A stretch of DNA of 56,593 nucleotides, taken from the NCBI GenBank assembly GCA_964383465.1, contig CAYLGT010000005.1:1-56593 (forward strand), written 5' to 3'. A program made the position numbers and the translations under genes. This DNA comes from an uncultured Candidatus Saccharibacteria bacterium (GTDB lineage Bacteria; Patescibacteriota; Saccharimonadia; Saccharimonadales; Saccharimonadaceae). Below the pieces are notes generated by a model. It ran no database searches. It was given only the letters and a program-made list of their open reading frames with translations, and was not told the origin of the DNA. Positions 3,848 through 47,832 of this stretch are shown piece by piece (positions within the stretch are counted from its first letter, which is position 1; every line of letters begins with the position of its first letter).

Positions 3848-4558
3848 ATGGCCGTGAAGGTTGATATCAAGGCTTTGCTCGAAGCCGGTGTTCATTTCGG
3901 ACACAAAACGAGCCGTTGGCACCCAAAGATGGCGCCATACATCCACAGTAAACGTCAGGATTCGCACATCATCGACCTGACAAAAACCGTTGAAGCACTC
4001 GAGACAGCGCTTCCTGTTGTGACAGACGCTGTCGCACGTGGACGTCAAGTACTGCTCGTTGGTACTAAGCGTCAGGCCCAGGACATCGTCCGCGCGGCTG
4101 CAGAAAAAGCTGGCCAACCATACGTCACTGAGCGTTGGATGGGCGGTATGCTTACCAACACTACGACGATGGTCGCACGTATCAAGCACCTCAAGTCGCT
4201 TGAGAAAAAGATGGACAGCGGCGAGCTTGCTAACCGCTACAACAAGCTGGAAATCCAGCGCTTCCAAGAGGAAATCGATGACCTGAACAAAAAGTATGGC
4301 GGCATCAAAGACCTCAGCGGTAAGCCTGGTGTAGTGTTTGTTACCGACATCATCGAGGACATCAACGCAGTTCGTGAAGCAAAGAAGCTCGGCGTGCCAG
4401 TGATCGCAATCTGCGACACCAACACCGACCCAAGCCTCGTCGACTTCCCAGTTCCTGCTAACGACGACGCCATCAAGGGTCTTCAACTCATCATCGACTA
4501 CGTCGTTGCGGCAATCGATGAAGGAAAGGCAACTGCAGAGAAAAAGGAGGGCAAATAA
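3848..4558 (+). CDS. rpsB: 30S ribosomal protein S2
   Basis: N-terminus LLEAGVHFGHKTSRWHPKM and the full-length S2 pattern. Confidence 0.97.
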   Translation: MAVKVDIKALLEAGVHFGHKTSRWHPKMAPYIHSKRQDSHIIDLTKTVEALETALPVVTDAVARGRQVLLVGTKRQAQDIVRAAAEKAGQPYVTERWMGGMLTNTTTMVARIKHLKSLEKKMDSGELANRYNKLEIQRFQEEIDDLNKKYGGIKDLSGKPGVVFVTDIIEDINAVREAKKLGVPVIAICDTNTDPSLVDFPVPANDDAIKGLQLIIDYVVAAIDEGKATAEKKEGK

Positions 4559-4559
4559 C

Positions 4560-5156
4560 ATGGCTATTTCTATCGACGAGATCAAGAAGCTCAAAGAGCT
4601 GACTGGTGTCGGACTGACCGATGCAAAGAGCGCGCTCGTCGAAGCCGACGGCGACTTCGATAAAGCACTCGAAGCTATGCGCAAAAAGGGTCTGACCAAG
4701 GCCGAAAAGCGTGGTGAGCGAGAAGCTCGCGAAGGTATCGTTGACAGCTATGTTCACAGTGGGCGCATCGGCGTACTCGTCGAAGTAAACTGTGAGACTG
4801 ACTTTGTGGCTAAAACTGACGAGTTCAAAGAACTCGTGCACGACATCGCTTTGCACGCATCGGCAACCGCTCCAGAGTACATCTCTACCGAGGACGTGCC
4901 TGCCGACGTTCGTGATGCCAAAGCAGCTGAGTTCAAGGAAAAAGTAGTTGCTGAAGGCAAGCCAGCTGACATGGCTGACAAGATCGTCGAAGGGCAGCTG
5001 AACAAATACTTTGCAGAAAAAACTCTGCTTGAGCAGCCATTTGTAAAGAATCCCGACATCACTGTCGGTGAGCTTGTCAAAGAGCATATCTCGAAGCTCG
5101 GTGAAAACATCGTTGTTCGCCAACTGAAGCGAGTTGAGCTCGGCGCCAGCGAATAA
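4560..5156 (+). CDS. tsf: Elongation factor Ts (short form, 198 aa)
   Basis: MAISIDEIKKLKELTGVGLTDAKSALVEADGDFDKALEAMRKKG is the UBA-like N-terminus. ATG 4560 follows an AAGGAGG SD, so the upstream ORF extension was rejected. Confidence 0.95.
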   Translation: MAISIDEIKKLKELTGVGLTDAKSALVEADGDFDKALEAMRKKGLTKAEKRGEREAREGIVDSYVHSGRIGVLVEVNCETDFVAKTDEFKELVHDIALHASATAPEYISTEDVPADVRDAKAAEFKEKVVAEGKPADMADKIVEGQLNKYFAEKTLLEQPFVKNPDITVGELVKEHISKLGENIVVRQLKRVELGASE

Positions 5157-5176
5157 AAAAAGCGCACATATATGAG

Positions 5177-5206
5177 AAACCCGCCTCCAAATTCGGAGGC
5201 GGGTTT
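5177..5206. terminator. Bidirectional intrinsic terminator after tsf and the convergent membrane gene
   Basis: aaacccgcctcc-aaattc-ggaggcgggttt, flanked by an A-run and a T-run. Confidence 0.8.
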
Positions 5207-5241
5207 CGTTATCCTGCTTGCGCAGCTTCGGACTCAGCTGC

Positions 5242-5817
5242 TCACTGGGTGGCGACTCGCGGCGGGGTGATCACGAACTTCAAGAGCGCCCACGTGAGCC
5301 TCCAGCAGCCGGTGAGGATCGACAGATACAGGAAGGCTGGTGTGAGTGTCAGTGTCGTGTTCCAGACGTCGGCAACGATCTCCATGGGTTGAGCACCGGT
5401 CTGGGCATGCCATCCGTCAAGCACCACCATGAGAACCAGAGTGACCATCCAGAGGCTCGCCATGAAGGACAGCGCTCTGGTCACCGCTCGCACGGGGCGG
5501 AAGGCGTACGAGGCCGTACCGTTGGCGTATCTGACCCTGACTACCCCGGGCAGCAAGCCCGAAAATCCCAGGATCATCAGCGGCGCGAGGGTCGCGAACC
5601 GGAACGGCACACTGAGCGGTGTGGCGATTTCGATGAGGACGGCCGGGGCAAGGGTCATGATGTTGATCATGAGGATCACTGACGCGGCTGCCCTGAGGAA
5701 CCTCAGCCGAGGTTGCATAGTCATCACTTCAGCCTCGACGGCAGGTCCGAAGGCGTAGCGGTAGGCGGATCGAAGCGCGTGAGCTACAGCGATCGCATAG
5801 AACTGAAAAGTGCGCAT
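5242..5817 (-). CDS. Hypothetical multi-pass membrane protein (GC-rich)
   Basis: 191-aa ORF with several TM helices and a GAGGTG SD 6 nt upstream. It occupies the slot where pyrH usually sits between tsf and frr. Confidence 0.6.
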   Translation of the reverse strand: MRTFQFYAIAVAHALRSAYRYAFGPAVEAEVMTMQPRLRFLRAAASVILMINIMTLAPAVLIEIATPLSVPFRFATLAPLMILGFSGLLPGVVRVRYANGTASYAFRPVRAVTRALSFMASLWMVTLVLMVVLDGWHAQTGAQPMEIVADVWNTTLTLTPAFLYLSILTGCWRLTWALLKFVITPPRVATQ

Positions 5818-5962
5818 GAGTCACCTCGTGGTCGGGGATAACGATACTAGTTAGCATACAGTGATTTTCATATAAATCAAGTCATATAATTGCTTTTAGG
5901 GCTCATATATTGTAAAATTTGCACTTAGTTGCATCACTGATCGAAGAATCGAGGTATATGCA

Positions 5963-6114: not shown

Positions 6115-6160
6115 CCTCTCGCTTGAGATGTTTATCTCAGGCGAGAGGTCGTTTTTCTTT
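6115..6160 (+). terminator. Intrinsic terminator after the small TM ORF
   Basis: cctctcgcttgagat / atctcaggcgagagg gives a 15-bp stem with 1 mismatch, followed by tcgtttttcttttt. Confidence 0.65.
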
Positions 6161-6199
6161 TTCCTTGCTATAATTGAAACGAGAAAACTAAGGAGTGAT

Positions 6200-6754
6200 A
6201 TGTTCGACACAAAACCTTATGAAGACAAGATGAACGGCGCACTAGGCCATTTTCATGATGAACTAAAAAAGATTCGTACCGGCCGAGCGCACCCAGACAT
6301 GCTCGACGGTGTCATGGTTGAGGTCTACGGAAGCCGTATGCCGCTCATCCAGGTAGCAAACATCACCGTGCCCGAACCACAGCTCCTGCAGGTGAATCCA
6401 TTCGACCCGAGTAACGTTCAGGCGATCGCTACGGCTATTCGTGAATCTCAGGGACTTGGCTTTAACCCAAGTGACGACGGGCGTATCGTGCGCGTACCAG
6501 TACCAGCGCTCACCGAAGAGCGACGCCGCGAGCTGGTTAAAAGCCTTGGTGACAAGGTGGAGGATTGCCGTATCGCTATGCGTAACGTTCGCCAAGACGC
6601 CCTGAAAGATGCCAAGCGCATGAAGGACAACAAGGAACTGTCAGAAGACGACGTCAAAGCAGTCGAAAAAGAGATCGACAAGCTCATGCACGAGTTCCAG
6701 GCAAAGATCGACGAAACGTTCAAAGCCAAGGAACAAGAGGTCATGACGATCTAA
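6200..6754 (+). CDS. frr: Ribosome recycling factor
   Basis: LKKIRTGRAHPDMLDGVMVEVYGSRMPL plus the rest of the RRF pattern. AAGGAG SD precedes ATG 6200, with TATAAT at 6169-6174. Confidence 0.95.
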   Translation: MFDTKPYEDKMNGALGHFHDELKKIRTGRAHPDMLDGVMVEVYGSRMPLIQVANITVPEPQLLQVNPFDPSNVQAIATAIRESQGLGFNPSDDGRIVRVPVPALTEERRRELVKSLGDKVEDCRIAMRNVRQDALKDAKRMKDNKELSEDDVKAVEKEIDKLMHEFQAKIDETFKAKEQEVMTI

Positions 6755-41826: not shown

Positions 41827-42218
41827 CCCAGCAACATATACTCCTTATCGAAGATGACCAGTGGCTCGCAGATAGCTACGCGGCCATGTTGAGTGCGGCA
41901 GGCTACTCGACCCAGACGGTGACCTCGGCGCATGTTGCCATGAAACTCATCGACAAAAAATTGCCCGATCTCATAGTGGCGGACGTGATGCTTGGCGACC
42001 ACAACACATTTACGCTGTTTCATGAGTTACAAAGCTATGACGACACGGCGAACATACCTATCGTGCTCTGTACGGGAGTCGATACCGAACAATTGTCACA
42101 AGCAGACCTGAAGCACTATGGGATCGTCCAGGTCTTCAACAAAGCGACACTCACTCCTGACCAACTGGTCATGGCAGCTCAAGAATTTATAGACACGAAA
42201 GGCAAGGTAGGGCGATGA
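41823..42218 (+). CDS. Single-domain response regulator (receiver only)
   Basis: ILLIEDD ... LIVADVMLGD. Overlaps the kinase stop (ATGA). Confidence 0.85.
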   Translation: MTQQHILLIEDDQWLADSYAAMLSAAGYSTQTVTSAHVAMKLIDKKLPDLIVADVMLGDHNTFTLFHELQSYDDTANIPIVLCTGVDTEQLSQADLKHYGIVQVFNKATLTPDQLVMAAQEFIDTKGKVGR

Positions 42219-42892
42219 AACCGATTCGCACCAAAGCCATCGTTCTACGGCGCACTAACTATGCCGAAGCAGACCGTATACTGCAGCTGCTTACTCCTGA
42301 CCATGGCAAACTGAGTGTGATCGCAAAAGGTGTCCGACGTGAAAAAAGCAAACTAGCCGGGGGTATAGAGTTGTTTGCAGTGTGCGACGTGTCGATCATT
42401 CCTGGAAAGGGTGACATGGGTACGCTCACTAGTTCGCGGCTCGACACGTTTTTCTCACACATACTCGAGGAGTACGAACGACTTCAGTTCGGGTATGAGG
42501 CGATCAAGCAGATATCGCTCGTCGTGGAGTCCATCGCCGACCCAGCGTATTTTGCGCTTCTCAAAACAGCGTTTGAGTCACTCGACGACCCTGAGATCGA
42601 CGACAAGATAACCGAGAGTTGGTTCTGGCTACAGTTGGGAATTCTCCAGGGCACCGGTTTGAACCTGGCGACCGATGACAATGGCATGAAGTTGGTGGAA
42701 GAAAGTCGCTATAACTACGACGAAGAAAACATGAACTTTGTGTACCACGAGCAGGGACGCTTCACGACCGAACACATAAAGTTACTGCGAATTCTCAGCG
42801 CCCAACCACCAAGAGTTGCGCAACATGTGCGCGGTGTCGAAGAGCTCATCACCGACTGCTTATGGCTGGCTGAGCGAAGTTTTTCTCACTAG
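42215..42892 (+). CDS. recO: DNA repair protein RecO
   Basis: TKAIVLRRTNYAEADRILQLLTPDHGKLSVIAKGVRREKSKL. Overlaps the receiver stop (ATGA). Confidence 0.88.
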   Translation: MKPIRTKAIVLRRTNYAEADRILQLLTPDHGKLSVIAKGVRREKSKLAGGIELFAVCDVSIIPGKGDMGTLTSSRLDTFFSHILEEYERLQFGYEAIKQISLVVESIADPAYFALLKTAFESLDDPEIDDKITESWFWLQLGILQGTGLNLATDDNGMKLVEESRYNYDEENMNFVYHEQGRFTTEHIKLLRILSAQPPRVAQHVRGVEELITDCLWLAERSFSH

Positions 42893-42893
42893 G

Positions 42894-42951
42894 ATTTAAA
42901 ACACCCCCAACCTGCACGTTGCTCCGCAGTATGCGGACAACAGGTTGGGGG
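42894..42951 (-). terminator. Cassette terminator element, copy 1 (variant with compensatory changes)
   Basis: Outer stem cccccaacctg/caggttggggg (42904-14 / 42941-51), inner hairpin tccgca-gta-tgcgga, and a T-tract on the minus strand (tgttttaaat). Confidence 0.75.
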
Positions 42952-42965
42952 AATCGTTCGGACAG

Positions 42966-43451
42966 CTACTTGGTAGCAGCGAAGCTCTCACGGTGCGTGT
43001 CGAGGCGCGCTGCCAGGTGGTGAAACGCGTCCTTCTGCCGGAGCTCGTCGAGCAGCTCGCTCAGTTCGGTACCCTTGTGGGTATCGAGGCTGCGCAGGTT
43101 GGAAAGCAGCACGTCGTAAGCAGGGCCGGGTTGTCCGTGCTCAGCGAGCAGCTTCGACAACCAGAGCACGTTGGCCAGATAGGTCTCGATGTCCGGTTCC
43201 TGGCCAAAGACGTCAGAAAGCGAAAACGGGTCCCAGTCGCTTCTGAACTGATGCCACGCGTCGGCCTGGCTACTGAAGGCAAGCGGAGCCGTCATCGCCA
43301 TGAACTGGTCGAGCGTGGCGTTGGCATGAAGGCCGGCACGCCTCGAATCTTTCGCGATGATGATCGCGTTATTCACAGTTTCGCGATTCGCCAGTAGGTC
43401 TCGAACCTTGCGAGCTGCATCTTCTGACGTCTTGGGAAGCTTGTTGTACAC
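42966..43451 (-). CDS. Hypothetical helical protein, cassette paralog 1 (161 aa)
   Basis: GTG start behind a GGAGG SD. Shares the TAPLAF core and overall helix pattern with paralogs 2 and 3. Confidence 0.65.
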   Translation of the reverse strand: MYNKLPKTSEDAARKVRDLLANRETVNNAIIIAKDSRRAGLHANATLDQFMAMTAPLAFSSQADAWHQFRSDWDPFSLSDVFGQEPDIETYLANVLWLSKLLAEHGQPGPAYDVLLSNLRSLDTHKGTELSELLDELRQKDAFHHLAARLDTHRESFAATK

Positions 43452-43493
43452 GTTGCCTCCAGGCAGTAGTGGTAGGTACGAACGATTGAATAT

Positions 43494-43502
43494 ATTATAT
43501 CA
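43494..43502 (-). promoter_or_regulatory. Extended -10 TGATATAAT for paralog 1
   Basis: Reverse complement of attatatca. The predicted TSS falls at the conserved AATCGTTCGTACC motif (plus 43479-87). Confidence 0.65.
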
Positions 43503-43514
43503 CAAAACCGTAGT

Positions 43515-43569
43515 AATTAAAACACCCCATCCTGCACGTTGCTCCGAAATCTCGGACAACAGGATGGGG
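43515..43569 (-). terminator. Cassette terminator element, copy 2
   Basis: Outer stem ccccatcctg/caggatgggg (43525-34 / 43560-69) and inner hairpin tccga-aatc-tcgga. The 53 nt at 43517-43569 are identical to 44096-44148. Confidence 0.75.
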
Positions 43570-43587
43570 CTTGTTCGGGCGCATGCT

Positions 43588-44034
43588 TCAGTCGAGGAGC
43601 TGCTTCTGGTAGAGGGCGTCGAACCCAGGCTGGTGCCGGTTTCGCATGATCACCAGCCTGGTTGCGGCCCGAAGATTTTTCTGCAGCGCATCCAGGTTGG
43701 CTTCTAGCAGCCACGCGGCTGCGGCAGCATGGCCGCTCTCCGACAGCTTCTCTACCAGCCAGAGTGCACGACTCGAGTACTCCTCGCCGGCATCTGGCGG
43801 GACGACCCCTAGGATGGTATTGAACTGCACCTGGAGCTCCTCGTTGTTCACGAAGTTGCCTTCGAAGAGCAGCGGTGCCGCGAAGATGAGGCGGATGCCT
43901 GGATCGGTGCACGTACTACCAAAGAACTCAAACGAGTTTTGGGCGAAGTTCTTTGCTCGTCTCAGGTCCCGCGTCTGGATCAGGTGCATGATGTCCAGGG
44001 CAGAGACTTGCGGCGTGAGTTGCTTCAAAGCCAT
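43588..44034 (-). CDS. Hypothetical helical protein, cassette paralog 2 (148 aa)
   Basis: ATG behind an AGGTGG SD. AAPLLF core and C-terminal HQPGF are shared with paralog 3. Confidence 0.65.
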   Translation of the reverse strand: MALKQLTPQVSALDIMHLIQTRDLRRAKNFAQNSFEFFGSTCTDPGIRLIFAAPLLFEGNFVNNEELQVQFNTILGVVPPDAGEEYSSRALWLVEKLSESGHAAAAAWLLEANLDALQKNLRAATRLVIMRNRHQPGFDALYQKQLLD

Positions 44035-44073
44035 GACTTGCCACCTAACTGTAGAGGTACGAACAATTTACTT

Positions 44074-44082
44074 ATTATACCA
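44074..44082 (-). promoter_or_regulatory. Extended -10 TGGTATAAT for paralog 2
   Basis: Reverse complement of attatacca. The conserved leader start AATTGTTCGTACC lies just downstream. Confidence 0.65.
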
Positions 44083-44093
44083 GAAAACCAACA

Positions 44094-44148
44094 ATTTAAA
44101 ACACCCCATCCTGCACGTTGCTCCGAAATCTCGGACAACAGGATGGGG
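44094..44148 (-). terminator. Cassette terminator element, copy 3
   Basis: Identical hairpin (44104-13 / 44139-48) followed on the minus strand by tgttttaaatt. Confidence 0.75.
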
Positions 44149-44168
44149 TTTGTTCGTTCGTGACGCCT

Positions 44169-44639
44169 CTACGAGACAAGTCGTAGGTAGTGAGCGGAGA
44201 AGCCAGGGTGGTCTCGGTGAGTCTCGAGGAGCTGGCTCAGTGCCGGACCCATGTTGATGCGGAGCGCACTGAGCTCTGACTGAAGGAGCCGACTGGCGTG
44301 TGCGCCGAGACCGTTGACGATGAGCAGGCGAGCCACTTCGAGCACGCGACTCAGGTACCTACGGCGGTCGGGTTCACCCAGGAAGCCGCGGCTGGGGTGC
44401 ATGATCTCTTCGTACGCCAGCTGCAGCTCGGTACTTCCGAGAAAGTGTGGGTCGAACAGAAGCGGGGCGGCCATCATGAACAAGTTGTTGCGCTCGATCA
44501 TTTCCCCGCTGCGGTACAGGCGCATCTGGTCAGACAGTCTTCGGGCGTTCAGGACCTCGCCTCTTTCCAGCAGATTCAAGATCTGCATGGCCAGCTGCTG
44601 GGGAACCGATGCGGTGGTTACGTGATGCTTGACGGGCAT
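44169..44639 (-). CDS. Hypothetical helical protein, cassette paralog 3 (156 aa from ATG 44639; the ORF extends to GTG 44651)
   Basis: AGGTGA SD 8 nt before ATG 44639. Contains the AAPLLF core and HPGF. Confidence 0.65.
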   Translation of the reverse strand: MPVKHHVTTASVPQQLAMQILNLLERGEVLNARRLSDQMRLYRSGEMIERNNLFMMAAPLLFDPHFLGSTELQLAYEEIMHPSRGFLGEPDRRRYLSRVLEVARLLIVNGLGAHASRLLQSELSALRINMGPALSQLLETHRDHPGFSAHYLRLVS

Positions 44640-44687
44640 GGGCTTTATCACCTAACTATTTCTCAAGGGACGAACGATTGTATGTAT

Positions 44688-44696
44688 ATGATACCA
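44688..44696 (-). promoter_or_regulatory. Extended -10 TGGTATCAT for paralog 3
   Basis: Reverse complement of atgatacca. The leader motif AATCGTTCGTCCC lies downstream (plus 44671-79). Confidence 0.6.
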
Positions 44697-44757
44697 CAAT
44701 TGTTTAAAAAACTCAATGAGCGACAGAGGTAGCGACAGTGCTATACTAGAGGGAATT

Positions 44758-46179
44758 ATGAGTAAGGAAACAAAACTTGAAGACATAGTCTCACTCGCGA
44801 AACGACGCGGGTTTATCTACCAGGGTAGCGAAGTGTATGGTGGTTTGAGCGGTACATGGGATTACGGTCCACTTGGTGTGCAACTCAAACGAAACATCAT
44901 GAACCTGTGGTGGCGTATGTTCGTCGACGAACGCGACGACATGTATGGTGTTGACGCGGCGATCCTCATGAACCAGAAAGTTTGGCAGGCAAGCGGTCAC
45001 GTCGATACGTTTACCGACCCGCTTGTGGAGTGTTCGCACTGTCACGCACGACTTCGCGCTGACAAGCTAGACGATCCGAACAAATGTCCGACATGTGGGC
45101 AGACCGGAACGTTTGGTGAAGCTCGCCCCTTTAACATGATGTTCCAAACATTTATGGGTCCTAACTGGGCAGCGGTAGAAGACAGAACTGCTGACAAGCT
45201 GCGATTTTCTGCAGAGTTCATAGACAAAAATGGCGAGAAGATCGGCGAGGGCATAAAGCAGAGCGAAGAGTCTGAAGCAGATGCTATAGCCATCTACAAA
45301 CGCAATGCTGTTTCTTACCTTCGTCCAGAAACTGCCCAGGGTATCTTCACGAACTACAAAAACGTTGTCGATAGTTTTTACCCAGACCTACCGTTTGGTA
45401 TCGCGCAGCAGGGAAAGGCGTTTCGTAACGAGATCAGCCCGCGTGACTTCGTGTTTCGCAGCCGTGAGTTTGAGCAGATGGAGATCGAGTACTTCGTGCA
45501 TCCTGAAAAATGGCAGGAGTGTTTCGAGCACTGGGTAGAGCAGTGCAAGAAATGGTTTGAGTCACTTGGTCTGCCTGCCGACATGATTCACGAACTGGAA
45601 GTTCCAGAAAGTGATCGCGCACACTACAGTAAACGAACCATCGACTTCGAGTTCGACTTTCCTATAGGTCGCGAAGAGCTCATGGGCCTGGCGTACCGAA
45701 CCGACTTCGACCTCGGTAACATCCAGAACCATTCTGGTAAAAACATGGAGTACACCGTGAAAGGAACGAACGACCGTTTCGTCCCTCACGTCATAGAGCC
45801 AAGCTTTGGTGTCGAGCGTGCGCTGATGGCTGTGCTAACCGCAGCATACCGTGAAGACGAGCAAAACGGTGAAAAGCGTGTGTTCCTGGCGTTGCCAGAA
45901 CATCTCGCTCCTGTGAAATACGCCGTCTCGCCACTTCTGAAAAACAAGCCAGAGCTTGTCGAAAAAGCCCGCGAAGTCTACCAGAAACTTTCTGCCGAAA
46001 ATCCTGGTCGTGTCATGTGGGACGACAACGGCAACATAGGTAAACGTTACCGCCGCCAAGACGAGATCGGAACCCCACACTGTGTCGTCATCGACTTCCA
46101 GACTTTGGAGGATGGAACGGTGACTGTACGTGAACGCGACACAACCGATCAACGACGAGTTACGCCAGACAACATTTGA
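44758..46179 (+). CDS. glyQS: Glycyl-tRNA synthetase (homodimeric class II, GlyQS type)
   Basis: RRGFIYQGSEVYGGLSGTWDYGPLG, RPETAQG, FRNEISPR and the anticodon-binding C-terminus. TATACTAGA at 44742 lies 10 nt before the ATG. Confidence 0.95.
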   Translation: MSKETKLEDIVSLAKRRGFIYQGSEVYGGLSGTWDYGPLGVQLKRNIMNLWWRMFVDERDDMYGVDAAILMNQKVWQASGHVDTFTDPLVECSHCHARLRADKLDDPNKCPTCGQTGTFGEARPFNMMFQTFMGPNWAAVEDRTADKLRFSAEFIDKNGEKIGEGIKQSEESEADAIAIYKRNAVSYLRPETAQGIFTNYKNVVDSFYPDLPFGIAQQGKAFRNEISPRDFVFRSREFEQMEIEYFVHPEKWQECFEHWVEQCKKWFESLGLPADMIHELEVPESDRAHYSKRTIDFEFDFPIGREELMGLAYRTDFDLGNIQNHSGKNMEYTVKGTNDRFVPHVIEPSFGVERALMAVLTAAYREDEQNGEKRVFLALPEHLAPVKYAVSPLLKNKPELVEKAREVYQKLSAENPGRVMWDDNGNIGKRYRRQDEIGTPHCVVIDFQTLEDGTVTVRERDTTDQRRVTPDNI

Positions 46180-46212: not shown

Positions 46213-47013
46213 ATGTCAGTCAATTTCCCGGAACCTGGTGATGAGAGAGATATAAGTCCAGATGCTGCCGCAGCTGAGAATACTGAACATGACCCAAGAT
46301 TTGAGCCGCAACATTTCAGCTTGAATGACCTCGTATATCTCGCGGAAGTTGGAGAGCAGCCTCATAGGGAAGTCTTGCGACAGTTTGCTGCGTGCGTAGA
46401 TGATTTCCACGCCCACATAGCGACTGCGGTTGCGTCGGGCGTGATAGAAGATGCGTTAAAGTTTAGGGGCGATGTAGGTGCTGAAATGCTGCGCATCAGT
46501 CAGGCTTTATCCGAGGCTATTCGGACACTCCCTGAGCATGTCCATGAGGCCGGCCTACCTGACGAGCTCGCCATCACGGAACTTAGTAAGTTGATCCTTG
46601 CTACCGACAAGGAGCGGGTAGATCTGTTTTCTGCTCTTGCCCCAGAAGCTTCACATCAGTTTACACGAATGAACTTAGAGGGTGCGGTGCGTTTGCTGGG
46701 CGATATCTATGCTGCGTTTGAAGAATCTGGCGAGGATATGCCTACAGAAGTGGACTACAACGTTCGGGGGATCGATTTAGGCAATGAGATAGTGAGCATG
46801 ATGAACACGGACCTAATGATCTTTGGGAAGGCACTTATCGAGGAGACACAGCGTCGAACCATGTTGTCAGCGGCTGAAAAAATCCTTGCAGACGATGAAG
46901 AAGGTGCATCCACTTTGGCAAAGCGGATCGGTGGACACGCGCTGGATGTGGCGAAGATTGCCGCTGGAGTGACAATTGGCATGGTCCTAGGTAACAGGTT
47001 TAGGAAAAGATAG
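46213..47013 (+). CDS. Hypothetical acidic 266-aa protein with a C-terminal TM anchor
   Basis: ORF with a C-terminal hydrophobic segment ([11 protein letters not shown]) and an RFRKR tail. It lies between glyQS and the glyQS 3'-end copy. Confidence 0.6.
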
Positions 47014-47036: not shown

Positions 47037-47171
47037 ATGAACATCACCCGCCGCCAAGACGAGATCGGAACTACGCACTGTGTGGTCATCGACTTCCAGA
47101 CTTTGGAGGATGGGATCGTGACTGTGAGTGATTGGGATACGGCTAAACAAACTAGGCTGACTAAGGCGTAA
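47037..47171 (+). pseudogene. Diverged copy of the glyQS 3' end (44 codons, potentially expressed as a micro-ORF)
   Basis: 47048-47125 matches 46050-46127 with 7 mismatches in 78 nt. The encoded [27 protein letters not shown] compares with [33 protein letters not shown] 47025-30 lies 6 nt before ATG 47037. Confidence 0.8.
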
Positions 47172-47178
47172 CGGAAAG

Positions 47179-47832
47179 ATGTCGAGTGTGTCAACAAAAA
47201 AAGTAAAACAACCTAAAACATACTGCTTTATTGACGCATCTAATCTTTTTTACGGGGGTAAAAAGTCCTTAGGTTGGAGCGTTGATTATAAAAAACTCGC
47301 TGAGTACCTAAAGAAAAAGTATGGCGCTCGAAATCTATACTATTTCGGTGGCATTATGACAGATAATTTTCCACATGACTACTTGAGCAATGAGACTGTC
47401 GATTTACGAAAATTAGTTAGACATTTAAAAGCAAATAAGAGCAAGTATAGCCCGCGCAGCAAACGATCGCAACAGTTAGAAAAATATATTGCAAGAGCAA
47501 AGTTTTACAAGAAGTTACAGGATTTTGGCTACAAGCTCATTCTCAGGCCTGCAAAGGTGTATAAACAACCAGATGGCTCTAAGCGCATAAAGGCAAACTG
47601 TGATATCGAGATGGCAATGACAATCATCAAAGATATGAATAAATATGATCGTGCGTTAGTCCTGACTAGTGACGGGGACTTCTTGCCAGTATTAAAATTA
47701 GTTCGGCATGCCAAAAAAACTGTAACCGTTTTAGCTAGAGGTGTCCGCACGGCGAGGGAATTGAAGCAGTTCGCAGGATCTGATTTTCGTGATTTTGTGA
47801 CCATTCGTAAATATATCGAAAAAACAAAATGA
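47179..47832 (+). CDS. NYN-domain (LabA/DUF88-like, PIN-related) putative ribonuclease, AT-rich
   Basis: CFIDASNLFYGG ... NCDIEMAMTI ... LTSDGDFLPVL are the NYN acidic motifs. Confidence 0.85.
   Translation: MSSVSTKKVKQPKTYCFIDASNLFYGGKKSLGWSVDYKKLAEYLKKKYGARNLYYFGGIMTDNFPHDYLSNETVDLRKLVRHLKANKSKYSPRSKRSQQLEKYIARAKFYKKLQDFGYKLILRPAKVYKQPDGSKRIKANCDIEMAMTIIKDMNKYDRALVLTSDGDFLPVLKLVRHAKKTVTVLARGVRTARELKQFAGSDFRDFVTIRKYIEKTK

Follow-up and report, generated by a model that had tools for sequence, protein, structure and literature searches.

Orphan-gene cassettes with predicted pairing of leader and 3' end at the recO-glyQS locus of an uncultured Saccharibacteria bacterium

Introduction

Between recO and glyQS, three small minus-strand genes stand in tandem in a 56,593-nucleotide (nt) stretch of a contig from an uncultured Candidatus Saccharibacteria bacterium (CAYLGT010000005.1 of assembly GCA_964383465.1; this whole stretch, at its full length, is called the window). 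A preliminary description of the locus, made from the DNA letters, reported three open reading frames (ORFs), each forming a self-contained cassette with an extended -10 promoter element, a leader, a Shine-Dalgarno (SD) sequence and a hairpin plus T tract. The ORFs were confirmed at their positions, and all of these signals are seen in the sequence of the three cassettes. The description also pointed out that the non-coding shells are better conserved than the coding sequences, and this too holds: two of the terminators are identical over 52 nt, versus 20-30% identity among the proteins.

What keeps the flanks of these genes alike while the genes themselves diverge? The answer offered at first was diversifying selection on an array of immunity, anti-defence or host-interaction genes. 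The analysis presented here points to a reason that had been overlooked, namely a covarying, predicted pairing between the leader and a box beside the terminator of the same cassette, which appears to be common to unrelated orphan cassettes. The reading that we favour, with some reserve, is that the locus consists of insulated monocistronic cassettes of orphan paralogs, whose mRNAs would be closed by pairing between the untranslated regions (UTRs) at their 5' and 3' ends in the manner of the Bacillus subtilis hbs mRNA.

Complementarity between leader and 3' box in the array

The cassettes are made up of the following features (bp, base pairs; aa, amino acids).

Cassette 3, 44688..44696, minus strand: extended -10, TGGTATCAT
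Cassette 3, 44667..44679, minus strand: leader (5') box, AATCGTTCGTCCC, at the inferred transcript start; partner 44161-44154
Cassette 3, 44169..44651, minus strand: ORF c3, 160 aa from GTG 44651; BLASTP homologue of c2 and c1
Cassette 3, 44154..44161, minus strand: 3' box, ACGAACGA; terminator stem 5 nt downstream
Cassette 3, 44093..44148, minus strand: terminator, a two-tier hairpin with arms 44148-44139 and 44113-44104, then a T tract
Cassette 2, 44074..44082, minus strand: extended -10, TGGTATAAT
Cassette 2, 44056..44069, minus strand: leader box, AAATTGTTCGTACC; partner 43577-43571
Cassette 2, 43588..44034, minus strand: ORF c2, 148 aa (protein P0002); SD AGGTGG at 44046-44041
Cassette 2, 43571..43577, minus strand: 3' box, CGAACAA; terminator stem 1 nt downstream
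Cassette 2, 43514..43569, minus strand: terminator with arms 43569-43560 and 43534-43525, then a T tract
Cassette 1, 43494..43502, minus strand: extended -10, TGATATAAT
Cassette 1, 43475..43487, minus strand: leader box, AATCGTTCGTACC; partner 42960-42952 (9 bp)
Cassette 1, 42966..43451, minus strand: ORF c1, 161 aa (protein P0001), GTG start; SD GGAGG at 43460-43456
Cassette 1, 42952..42960, minus strand: 3' box, CGAACGATT; directly adjoins the terminator stem
Cassette 1, 42894..42951, minus strand: terminator with arms 42951-42941 and 42914-42904, then a T tract; adjoins the stop codon of convergent recO

In every cassette the leader opens with ~9 nt (AAUCGUUCG and variants) that are the reverse complement of the box that lies just 5' of the cassette's own terminator. 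Complementarity of 7-10 bp is found in all 11 of the distinct transcription units of the family, and in a gapless alignment of the helices 78% of cells are paired; sliding the partner by 1-3 columns lowers this to 17-34%. Changes on both sides occur at three pairs of the helix alignment; in cassette 2, a C-to-T change in the leader is mirrored by a G-to-A change in its own 3' box. No shuffle matched the observed covariation score or the percentage paired, while the counts of double changes were often matched (68 and 14 of 500).

Variant leaders fit the 3' box of their own cassette and not that of the neighbour. This is the case for cassette 2 of the window (TTGTTCG with CGAACAA), for the first cassette of locus L003, which has no element upstream of it (ACTTGTTC with GAACAAGT), and for the cassette of a 154-aa protein that is the last of its array in L008 (TTCGTAC with GTACGAA). 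The possibility that the 3' box of an upstream gene pairs with the next leader was rejected, because first, last, single and variant cassettes all fit their own partner. In L002 (one G-U) and in the L015_A unit the helix is preserved by G-U pairs, which argues for pairing at the level of RNA.

The pairing also dominates the predicted folding of the transcripts. When whole predicted mRNAs (550-1085 nt) were folded, the minimum free energy structure joined leader nt ~1-10 to the 3' box in eight of eight units with a pair probability of 0.9-1.0; for the leader of cassette 3, the probabilities are 0.79-1.0 for nt 3-10. With shuffled leaders, 0 nt were paired in 22 of 28 controls. The SD lies outside the duplex between leader and 3' box. 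On the inferred transcript ends, the cassettes thus have the complementary UTRs expected of predicted hbs-type mRNAs.

The terminators

In the terminators of cassettes 2 and 3, the 52 identical nt (43518-43569 and 44097-44148) have a chance expectation of none, and over 61 nt the identity is 98%. The copy at 42896-42950 matches the other two at 81-94% in blocks, and its stem departs from theirs by compensatory changes. Over nine copies, the stem has 16 consensus pairs, of which 5 covary by compensatory changes. The hairpins have predicted energies of -30.6 to -34.2 kcal/mol (z -3.8 to -5.4) and are followed by TGTTTTA. A stable hairpin, a T tract and a position at the 3' end of a gene are all present, as expected of putative intrinsic (Rho-independent) terminators. 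In the related genome S1 (SRR30545106), every readable hairpin copy is of the other type, whereas two of the three window hairpins are identical, and this difference is evidence for gene conversion between copies.

A dispersed repeat, of the miniature inverted-repeat transposable element (MITE) or repetitive extragenic palindrome (REP) kind, was considered and rejected: within the window, the element is present only as the three copies of the array. When its pattern was sought in 185,579 species genomes, it turned up in one Saccharibacteria array and in one chance match within a coding sequence. Rfam searches, run over the whole window at gathering thresholds and over the array at a permissive setting, returned noise only. 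No tRNAs are present.

The same design on unrelated orphan cassettes

A fourth cassette of this design is found 38 kb from the array, in the gap between tsf (4506-5156) and frr (6128-6754).

5170..5860, minus strand: fourth cassette, in the tsf-frr gap, with an unrelated ORF at 5242-5817 (191 aa, hydrophobic, singleton; GC at third codon positions, GC3, 0.771)
5860-5853, minus strand: extended -10, TGTATGCT
5844-5836 and 5214-5206, minus strand: leader TCGTTATCC and 3' box GGATAACGA, a perfect 9-nt complement
5203-5180, minus strand: terminator, 2 nt after the 3' box, then a T tract

The 191-aa protein of this cassette has no homologue among 5.8 billion proteins. In L015, three of three small cassettes with unrelated ORFs and different terminators fold in the same way, and one of their 9-bp helices has two G-U pairs. 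Pairs of 10 bp and 9 bp are found in L038 (leader TTTTGAAGTT) and L032, respectively.

In a second orphan family, A6, the leader pairs with the last codons of the coding sequence: CCTTTCGAA with TTCGAAAGG in L003, TTCGGAAC with GTTCCGAA in L015, and CTCCTTTC with GAAAGGAG in L018. The A6 proteins are 200-300 aa long, with a sub-threshold match to the tetratricopeptide repeat (TPR), and are encoded in L003 (771-1502), L015 (2537-3259), L016, L018, L026, L027 and L034-L036. Their conserved C-terminal codons (..R-K/R-E-stop) overlap the 3' box with which the leader pairs, so that a constraint on the RNA may shape the C-terminus of the protein.

Two counts put figures on the arrangement. Of 25 non-redundant gap cassettes, some of which are not independent of one another, 14 carry the 3' box's best complement 3-11 nt past a -10-like TAnnnT hexamer; the expectation is 14.6% (binomial P 1.7e-6). 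Over all loci examined, a promoter-proximal exact complement of at least 8 nt accompanies 8 of 61 terminator-like hairpins, compared with 1.1 expected, and all eight belong to orphan cassettes. For the other 13 terminator-like hairpins in the window, complementarity is not above the null. These are tests of run length and position; searching for duplexes by energy in wide windows gave too much noise to be of use.

One further arrangement is seen in L001 (102-1076; SRR30545106), where members of 167 and 155 aa form a bicistron: they are separated by 3 nt, and the shell is missing from the junction. A single leader/3'-box pair encloses both genes.

The orphan paralogs and their proteins

The preliminary description had called the three ORFs clearly homologous, and they are true, old paralogs of a lineage-restricted orphan family. 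BLASTP gives E values of 2e-15 for c2 and c3 (27% identity), 2e-8 for c1 and c3, and 0.009 for c1 and c2, and the paralogs have in common the motifs AAPL(L/A)F, Y..(R/N)VL.L and PGF. The start of c3 is more likely ATG 44639 (156 aa) than GTG 44651; its SD, AGGTGA at 44653-44648, is separated from that ATG by 8 nt. An orthologue of c1, P0003 (73% identical), has ATG where c1 has GTG.

The description could not assign the proteins to any family, and the searches agree. Nothing was found for c1-c3 in Pfam, NCBIfam, PADLOC or PHROGs (best PHROGs E 0.035 or worse), nor with a profile search of PDB sequences, and Foldseek with two models gave no significant structural match in PDB or BFVD, and no viral one in the latter. 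A word-indexed search of 5.8 billion proteins recovered only two outside relatives, and HMMER, run in full against 1.84 billion cluster representatives, put the true family at about 10 members.

An AlphaFold model built on an 11-sequence family alignment has eight helices, with a predicted local distance difference test (pLDDT) score of 87.6 and a predicted template modelling (pTM) score of 0.82. The nearest PDB structures found by Foldseek are TPR-like CT2138 (2hr2), sNASP, designed pentatricopeptide repeat proteins (PPRs) and IpgC/SycD, at E 0.24 or worse and TM 0.33-0.47; a sequence-profile search also matches the Sel1/TPR-like repeat protein P0012. None of the three array proteins has a TPR Pfam match at E <=1, and hhalign gives a probability of 0.8% for the family against the A6 family of the same locus, with its sub-threshold TPR. 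Only A, P, L, G and F occupy the invariant or nearly invariant columns, conservation being confined to hydrophobic or turn residues, and no catalytic-type residue is conserved in the family alignment. The grand average of hydropathy (GRAVY) is negative, and the isoelectric point (pI) ranges from 5.2 to 9.7 among members. The array proteins are therefore modelled as small, soluble, all-helical and weakly TPR/PPR-like alpha-solenoids. Because no catalytic-type residue is conserved, they most likely act by binding a partner, without enzymatic activity.

The recO-glyQS hotspot

The genes that border the array are on the opposite strand.

42215..42892, plus strand: recO, left border of the hotspot; directly precedes glyQS in most Saccharibacteria
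44716..46179, plus strand: glyQS (single-chain glycyl-tRNA synthetase, GlyRS), right border of the hotspot; divergent from cassette 3

All members of the family lie between glyQS (divergent) and recO (convergent) on metagenomic contigs of a narrow Saccharibacteria clade, and a single representative genome in GTDB, an uncultured Candidatus Saccharibacteria metagenome-assembled genome, has the array. The surroundings were surveyed at 80 metagenomic recO loci (L015-L094), the gap being judged where recO and glyQS share a contig. A histidine kinase and response regulator pair (HK-RR) precedes recO in essentially every locus whose flank is long enough, and glyQS is found after recO wherever the contig reaches. 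In the more distant loci (RecO ~48-57% identical), glyQS mostly shares the strand of recO and lies 30-130 nt beyond it; relatives that are closer (RecO ~58-65% identical) have a gap of 0.45-2.6 kb, occupied by orphan ORFs on the opposite strand. None of these surveyed gap ORFs belongs to the array family, and distant homology between the family and other gap ORFs was rejected at an hhalign probability of 3.4% or lower. In many Saccharibacteria lineages it is the A6 family that fills the recO-proximal slot. Since recO and glyQS are contiguous in most of the distant loci and the gap is filled by ORFs of other families in closer relatives, the array is an insertion at a hotspot in an otherwise universal HK-RR-recO-glyQS cluster. 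A link specific to the array and the HK-RR pair was rejected, as HK-RR-recO is present whether the gap is filled or empty.

The description proposed, from its higher GC content, that the array looks acquired. The difference in composition is real: the array ORFs have 59.1-60.5% GC and a GC3 of 0.735-0.758, against 51.6% GC for the window and a GC3 of 0.50-0.61 for housekeeping genes. Acquisition itself stands only in part, in that the array is inserted in a conserved gene cluster; it has also been resident, keeping its synteny between species in which the synonymous sites of recO are saturated.

A variation in cassettes between strains was among the checks suggested, and number, order and content do differ between related species. 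From glyQS to recO, the contents are as follows.

Window: c3, c2, c1
S1 (SRR30545106): a c2-like cassette by glyQS, the bicistronic 167 + 155 pair, a c1-like cassette; contigs break inside the repeat
L008/L013: 166 (c3-like), 161 (c1-like), 154
L003: one family member and one second-family (A6) gene
L015/L016: no family members

RecO of the window and of L013 are 96% identical, while the best cross-species matches among array proteins are 19-40% and the cassette order differs. Between the close strains L008 and L013 (L008 1500-1900), the 161-aa cassette has 8-13% mismatch, the adjacent 154-aa cassette ~1%, and recO 5-9%, a mosaic that is consistent with recombination within the array.

The right side of the hotspot has peculiarities of its own. 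A direct repeat of 84 nt, 89% identical (46050-46133 and 47048-47131), consists of the 3' end of glyQS, encoding the anticodon-binding domain, and its copies bracket an orphan ORF of 266 aa (46213-47013); the arrangement suggests that an insertion regenerated or duplicated the glyQS end. The downstream copy appears as a 44-aa ORF in public annotations. The NYN-domain gene at 47179-47832 (plus strand; 38% GC, GC3 0.39) is a second compositional outlier beside the hotspot.

Alternative explanations

The first alternative is the one originally proposed, that diversifying selection acts on an array for immunity, anti-defence or host interaction, whose paralogs neutralise different toxins, phage or host factors. 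The paralogs are indeed tandem, small, non-enzymatic and fast-evolving, with a dN about 10-30 times that of RecO; cassette content varies by species at a hotspot, the composition is distinct, and Saccharibacteria are epibionts. Diversifying selection, however, is not supported by the estimated rates. Pairwise dN/dS by the NG86 method is below 1 throughout: 0.15-0.66 for distant orthologue-like pairs, with saturated dS, 0.19-0.71 between close pairs, and 0.017 for RecO. These values indicate coding genes that evolve fast under relaxed purifying selection. The proposed function fared no better, given the absence of matches in PADLOC and PHROGs and of a viral structure in BFVD. The neighbours comprise HK, RR, RecO, GlyRS, NYN and APH genes, with three others that have no Pfam match; the HK has HisKA and HATPase_c domains with no Pfam-detected sensor domain, and the RR is a receiver domain only. 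The identified flanking genes are thus housekeeping or signalling genes, NYN and APH, and by Pfam none of them is a toxin, secretion, recombinase or defence gene. Moreover, the array does not vary within the strain as sampled: four contigs from the strain of the window match it at 99.4-100% identity and are structurally unchanged. An immunity array is therefore considered unlikely.

Alternatively, the likeness of the shells could reflect history only, with cassette duplication and gene conversion spreading an inverted repeat that acts at the level of DNA (as a recombination or inversion site, or a scar) or has no function. Concerted evolution is apparent in the two identical shells, the third that differs and the single type throughout S1, and shuffled cassette order across species, the L008/L013 mosaic and assemblies that break within the element all fit a recombining locus. 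Against this, complementarity is retained through G-U pairs, which are mismatches in DNA, and the boxes are located exactly at the inferred +1 and beside the terminator stem. The design also recurs with other sequences where both ORFs and terminators are unrelated. As for inversion, inverted repeats are present but only 7-10 bp long, some pairs being G-U only, and the assemblies (not reads) all show one orientation; no recombinase or invertase is among the flanking genes examined. History as the whole explanation seems distinctly unlikely to us.

The leader box, (C)GTTCG(T/C)AC, might instead be an operator or promoter-proximal site through which one transcription factor regulates the genes of the hotspot together, the complement at the 3' end being incidental. 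GTTCG[CT]AC does occur right after the -10 in unrelated-ORF cassettes of L015, L019 and L035 as well as in the family. An operator does not predict, however, that divergent leaders (those of the tsf-frr cassette, TCGTTATCC; of A6, CCTTTCGAA; and of L038, TTTTGAAGTT) are matched by their own 3' box. There is no adjacent gene for a DNA-binding regulator, the neighbouring RR being receiver-only, and the motif is not palindromic. This explanation is judged quite improbable.

That the ORFs are spurious, either chance ORFs in GC-rich DNA or shadows of real antisense ORFs, is hardly credible: antisense ORFs of 150, 203 and 144 aa do overlie the array genes and two same-strain contigs annotate the 144-aa one over c3, but the three paralogs and ~8 further members across species are homologous at the amino-acid level, dN/dS is below 1, the minus strand carries the SD, start codon, promoter and terminator alike, and the AlphaFold model is confident.

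Long antisense ORFs are a trait of GC3-rich genes here. The one at 44298-44732 (plus strand, 144 aa) is called instead of c3 on the public same-strain contigs L095 and L096, and this call may explain the absence of c3 from the protein database; automated gene calling thus puts one member of the array on the wrong strand.

A model for the cassettes

In the reading that we favour, each cassette would be a monocistronic unit consisting of an extended -10, a leader complementary to the 3' box, a free SD and a two-tier intrinsic terminator. The in silico pairing of the 5' and 3' ends, next to the terminator hairpin, would close the mRNA on itself, and by analogy with hbs this closure would shield the 5' end from 5'-end-dependent RNases and so stabilise the message. 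Each cassette might then be expressed autonomously, whatever its context, and be insulated from its convergent and divergent housekeeping neighbours. It is proposed that the flanks are conserved above the coding sequence because selection acts on promoter, pairing and terminator and gene conversion keeps the copies alike, while the coding sequences, less constrained, change quickly. In addition, homology for the gain, loss and reshuffling of cassettes would come from the repeated shells.

Several points weigh against this reading. Transcript starts are placed from -10 spacing alone, the helices are short (7-10 bp), and the p-values from individual shuffling are modest, falling below 0.05 in 8 of 28. 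The cassettes of the family share ancestry, which leaves only ~3-5 independent compensatory events within it, and in several more distant gap cassettes a complementarity of 6 bp or none was detected. On the side of the proteins, the fold matches lack statistical significance, and "TPR-like binding protein" is therefore a description and not a claim of membership.

A wider proposal is more tentative, and we put it forward as a possibility that may well not hold: in this clade of Saccharibacteria, a portable "closed-loop" cassette would host fast-evolving, high-GC3 orphans at housekeeping-gene hotspots (recO-glyQS and tsf-frr), with end pairing under selection and the shells driving shuffling, as an analogue of a cassette array that needs no recombinase. 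If this is true, the shell is what is conserved and the cargo turns over. Functional 5'/3'-UTR pairing in bacteria has been described for a few single genes (hbs, icaR, RNAIII), and its generality is an open question (PMC7821165). The predicted end-pairing architecture occurs here, with covariation, on a dozen or more transcription units whose coding sequences are unrelated, and the remaining terminator-like hairpins of those loci lack it. If real, it would be the first modular, recurrent mRNA end-pairing in bacteria, and the lineage concerned is one of epibionts that have reduced genomes and few known regulators. The recO-glyQS hotspot and the new orphan family are in any case candidates for lineage-specific biology of Saccharibacteria.

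Comparison with known systems

Orphan immunity-gene arrays and integron-like arrays resemble the present locus in having tandem, small, diverged ORFs, structured repeats and a variable content at one site. The immunity-gene arrays differ from it in that no toxin partner is found in the flanks here and no defence database matches. Integron cassettes are promoterless, whereas each cassette of the array has its own promoter and terminator. An attC site was rejected, because the element (...CGAACGAT-hairpin-TGTTTTA) lacks the core sites RYYYAAC/GTTRRRY, and no integrase or recombinase is among the array's flanking genes examined, a window-wide integrase scan not having been made.

The proteins are comparable to TPR/PPR-like alpha-solenoids of ~150 aa, such as CT2138 (2hr2), the class II type III secretion system (T3SS) chaperones IpgC and SycD, and designed PPRs, which are alike in size and in having eight helices arranged as hairpins. 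They differ in that the matches are not significant and Pfam TPR is not found.

With respect to the RNA, Staphylococcus aureus icaR and RNAIII/hld are like the predicted transcripts of the array in that the 3' UTR pairs with its own 5' UTR, and the RNAIII helix, at 7 nt, is of comparable length (PMC7821165). The icaR 3' UTR masks the ribosome binding site through UCCCC and triggers decay by RNase III, and is thus repressive (PMC7821165). In the array, by contrast, the SD lies outside the duplex, and direct translational repression is not expected.

The closest parallel is B. subtilis hbs, in which a 14-bp interaction of the 5' and 3' UTRs shields the leader from RNase Y (Braun, Durand & Condon 2017, PMC5737220; PMC7821165). 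Like hbs, the array is predicted to have long-range intramolecular pairing between the 5' UTR and 3' UTR of one short monocistronic mRNA. The hbs helix, however, is 14 bp long and set within a long structured leader, whereas those of the array, of 7-10 bp, start at the inferred +1, with the terminator stem 0-5 nt away. The predicted array design further differs from hbs in appearing as a recurring module, with covariation, on many unrelated orphan genes.

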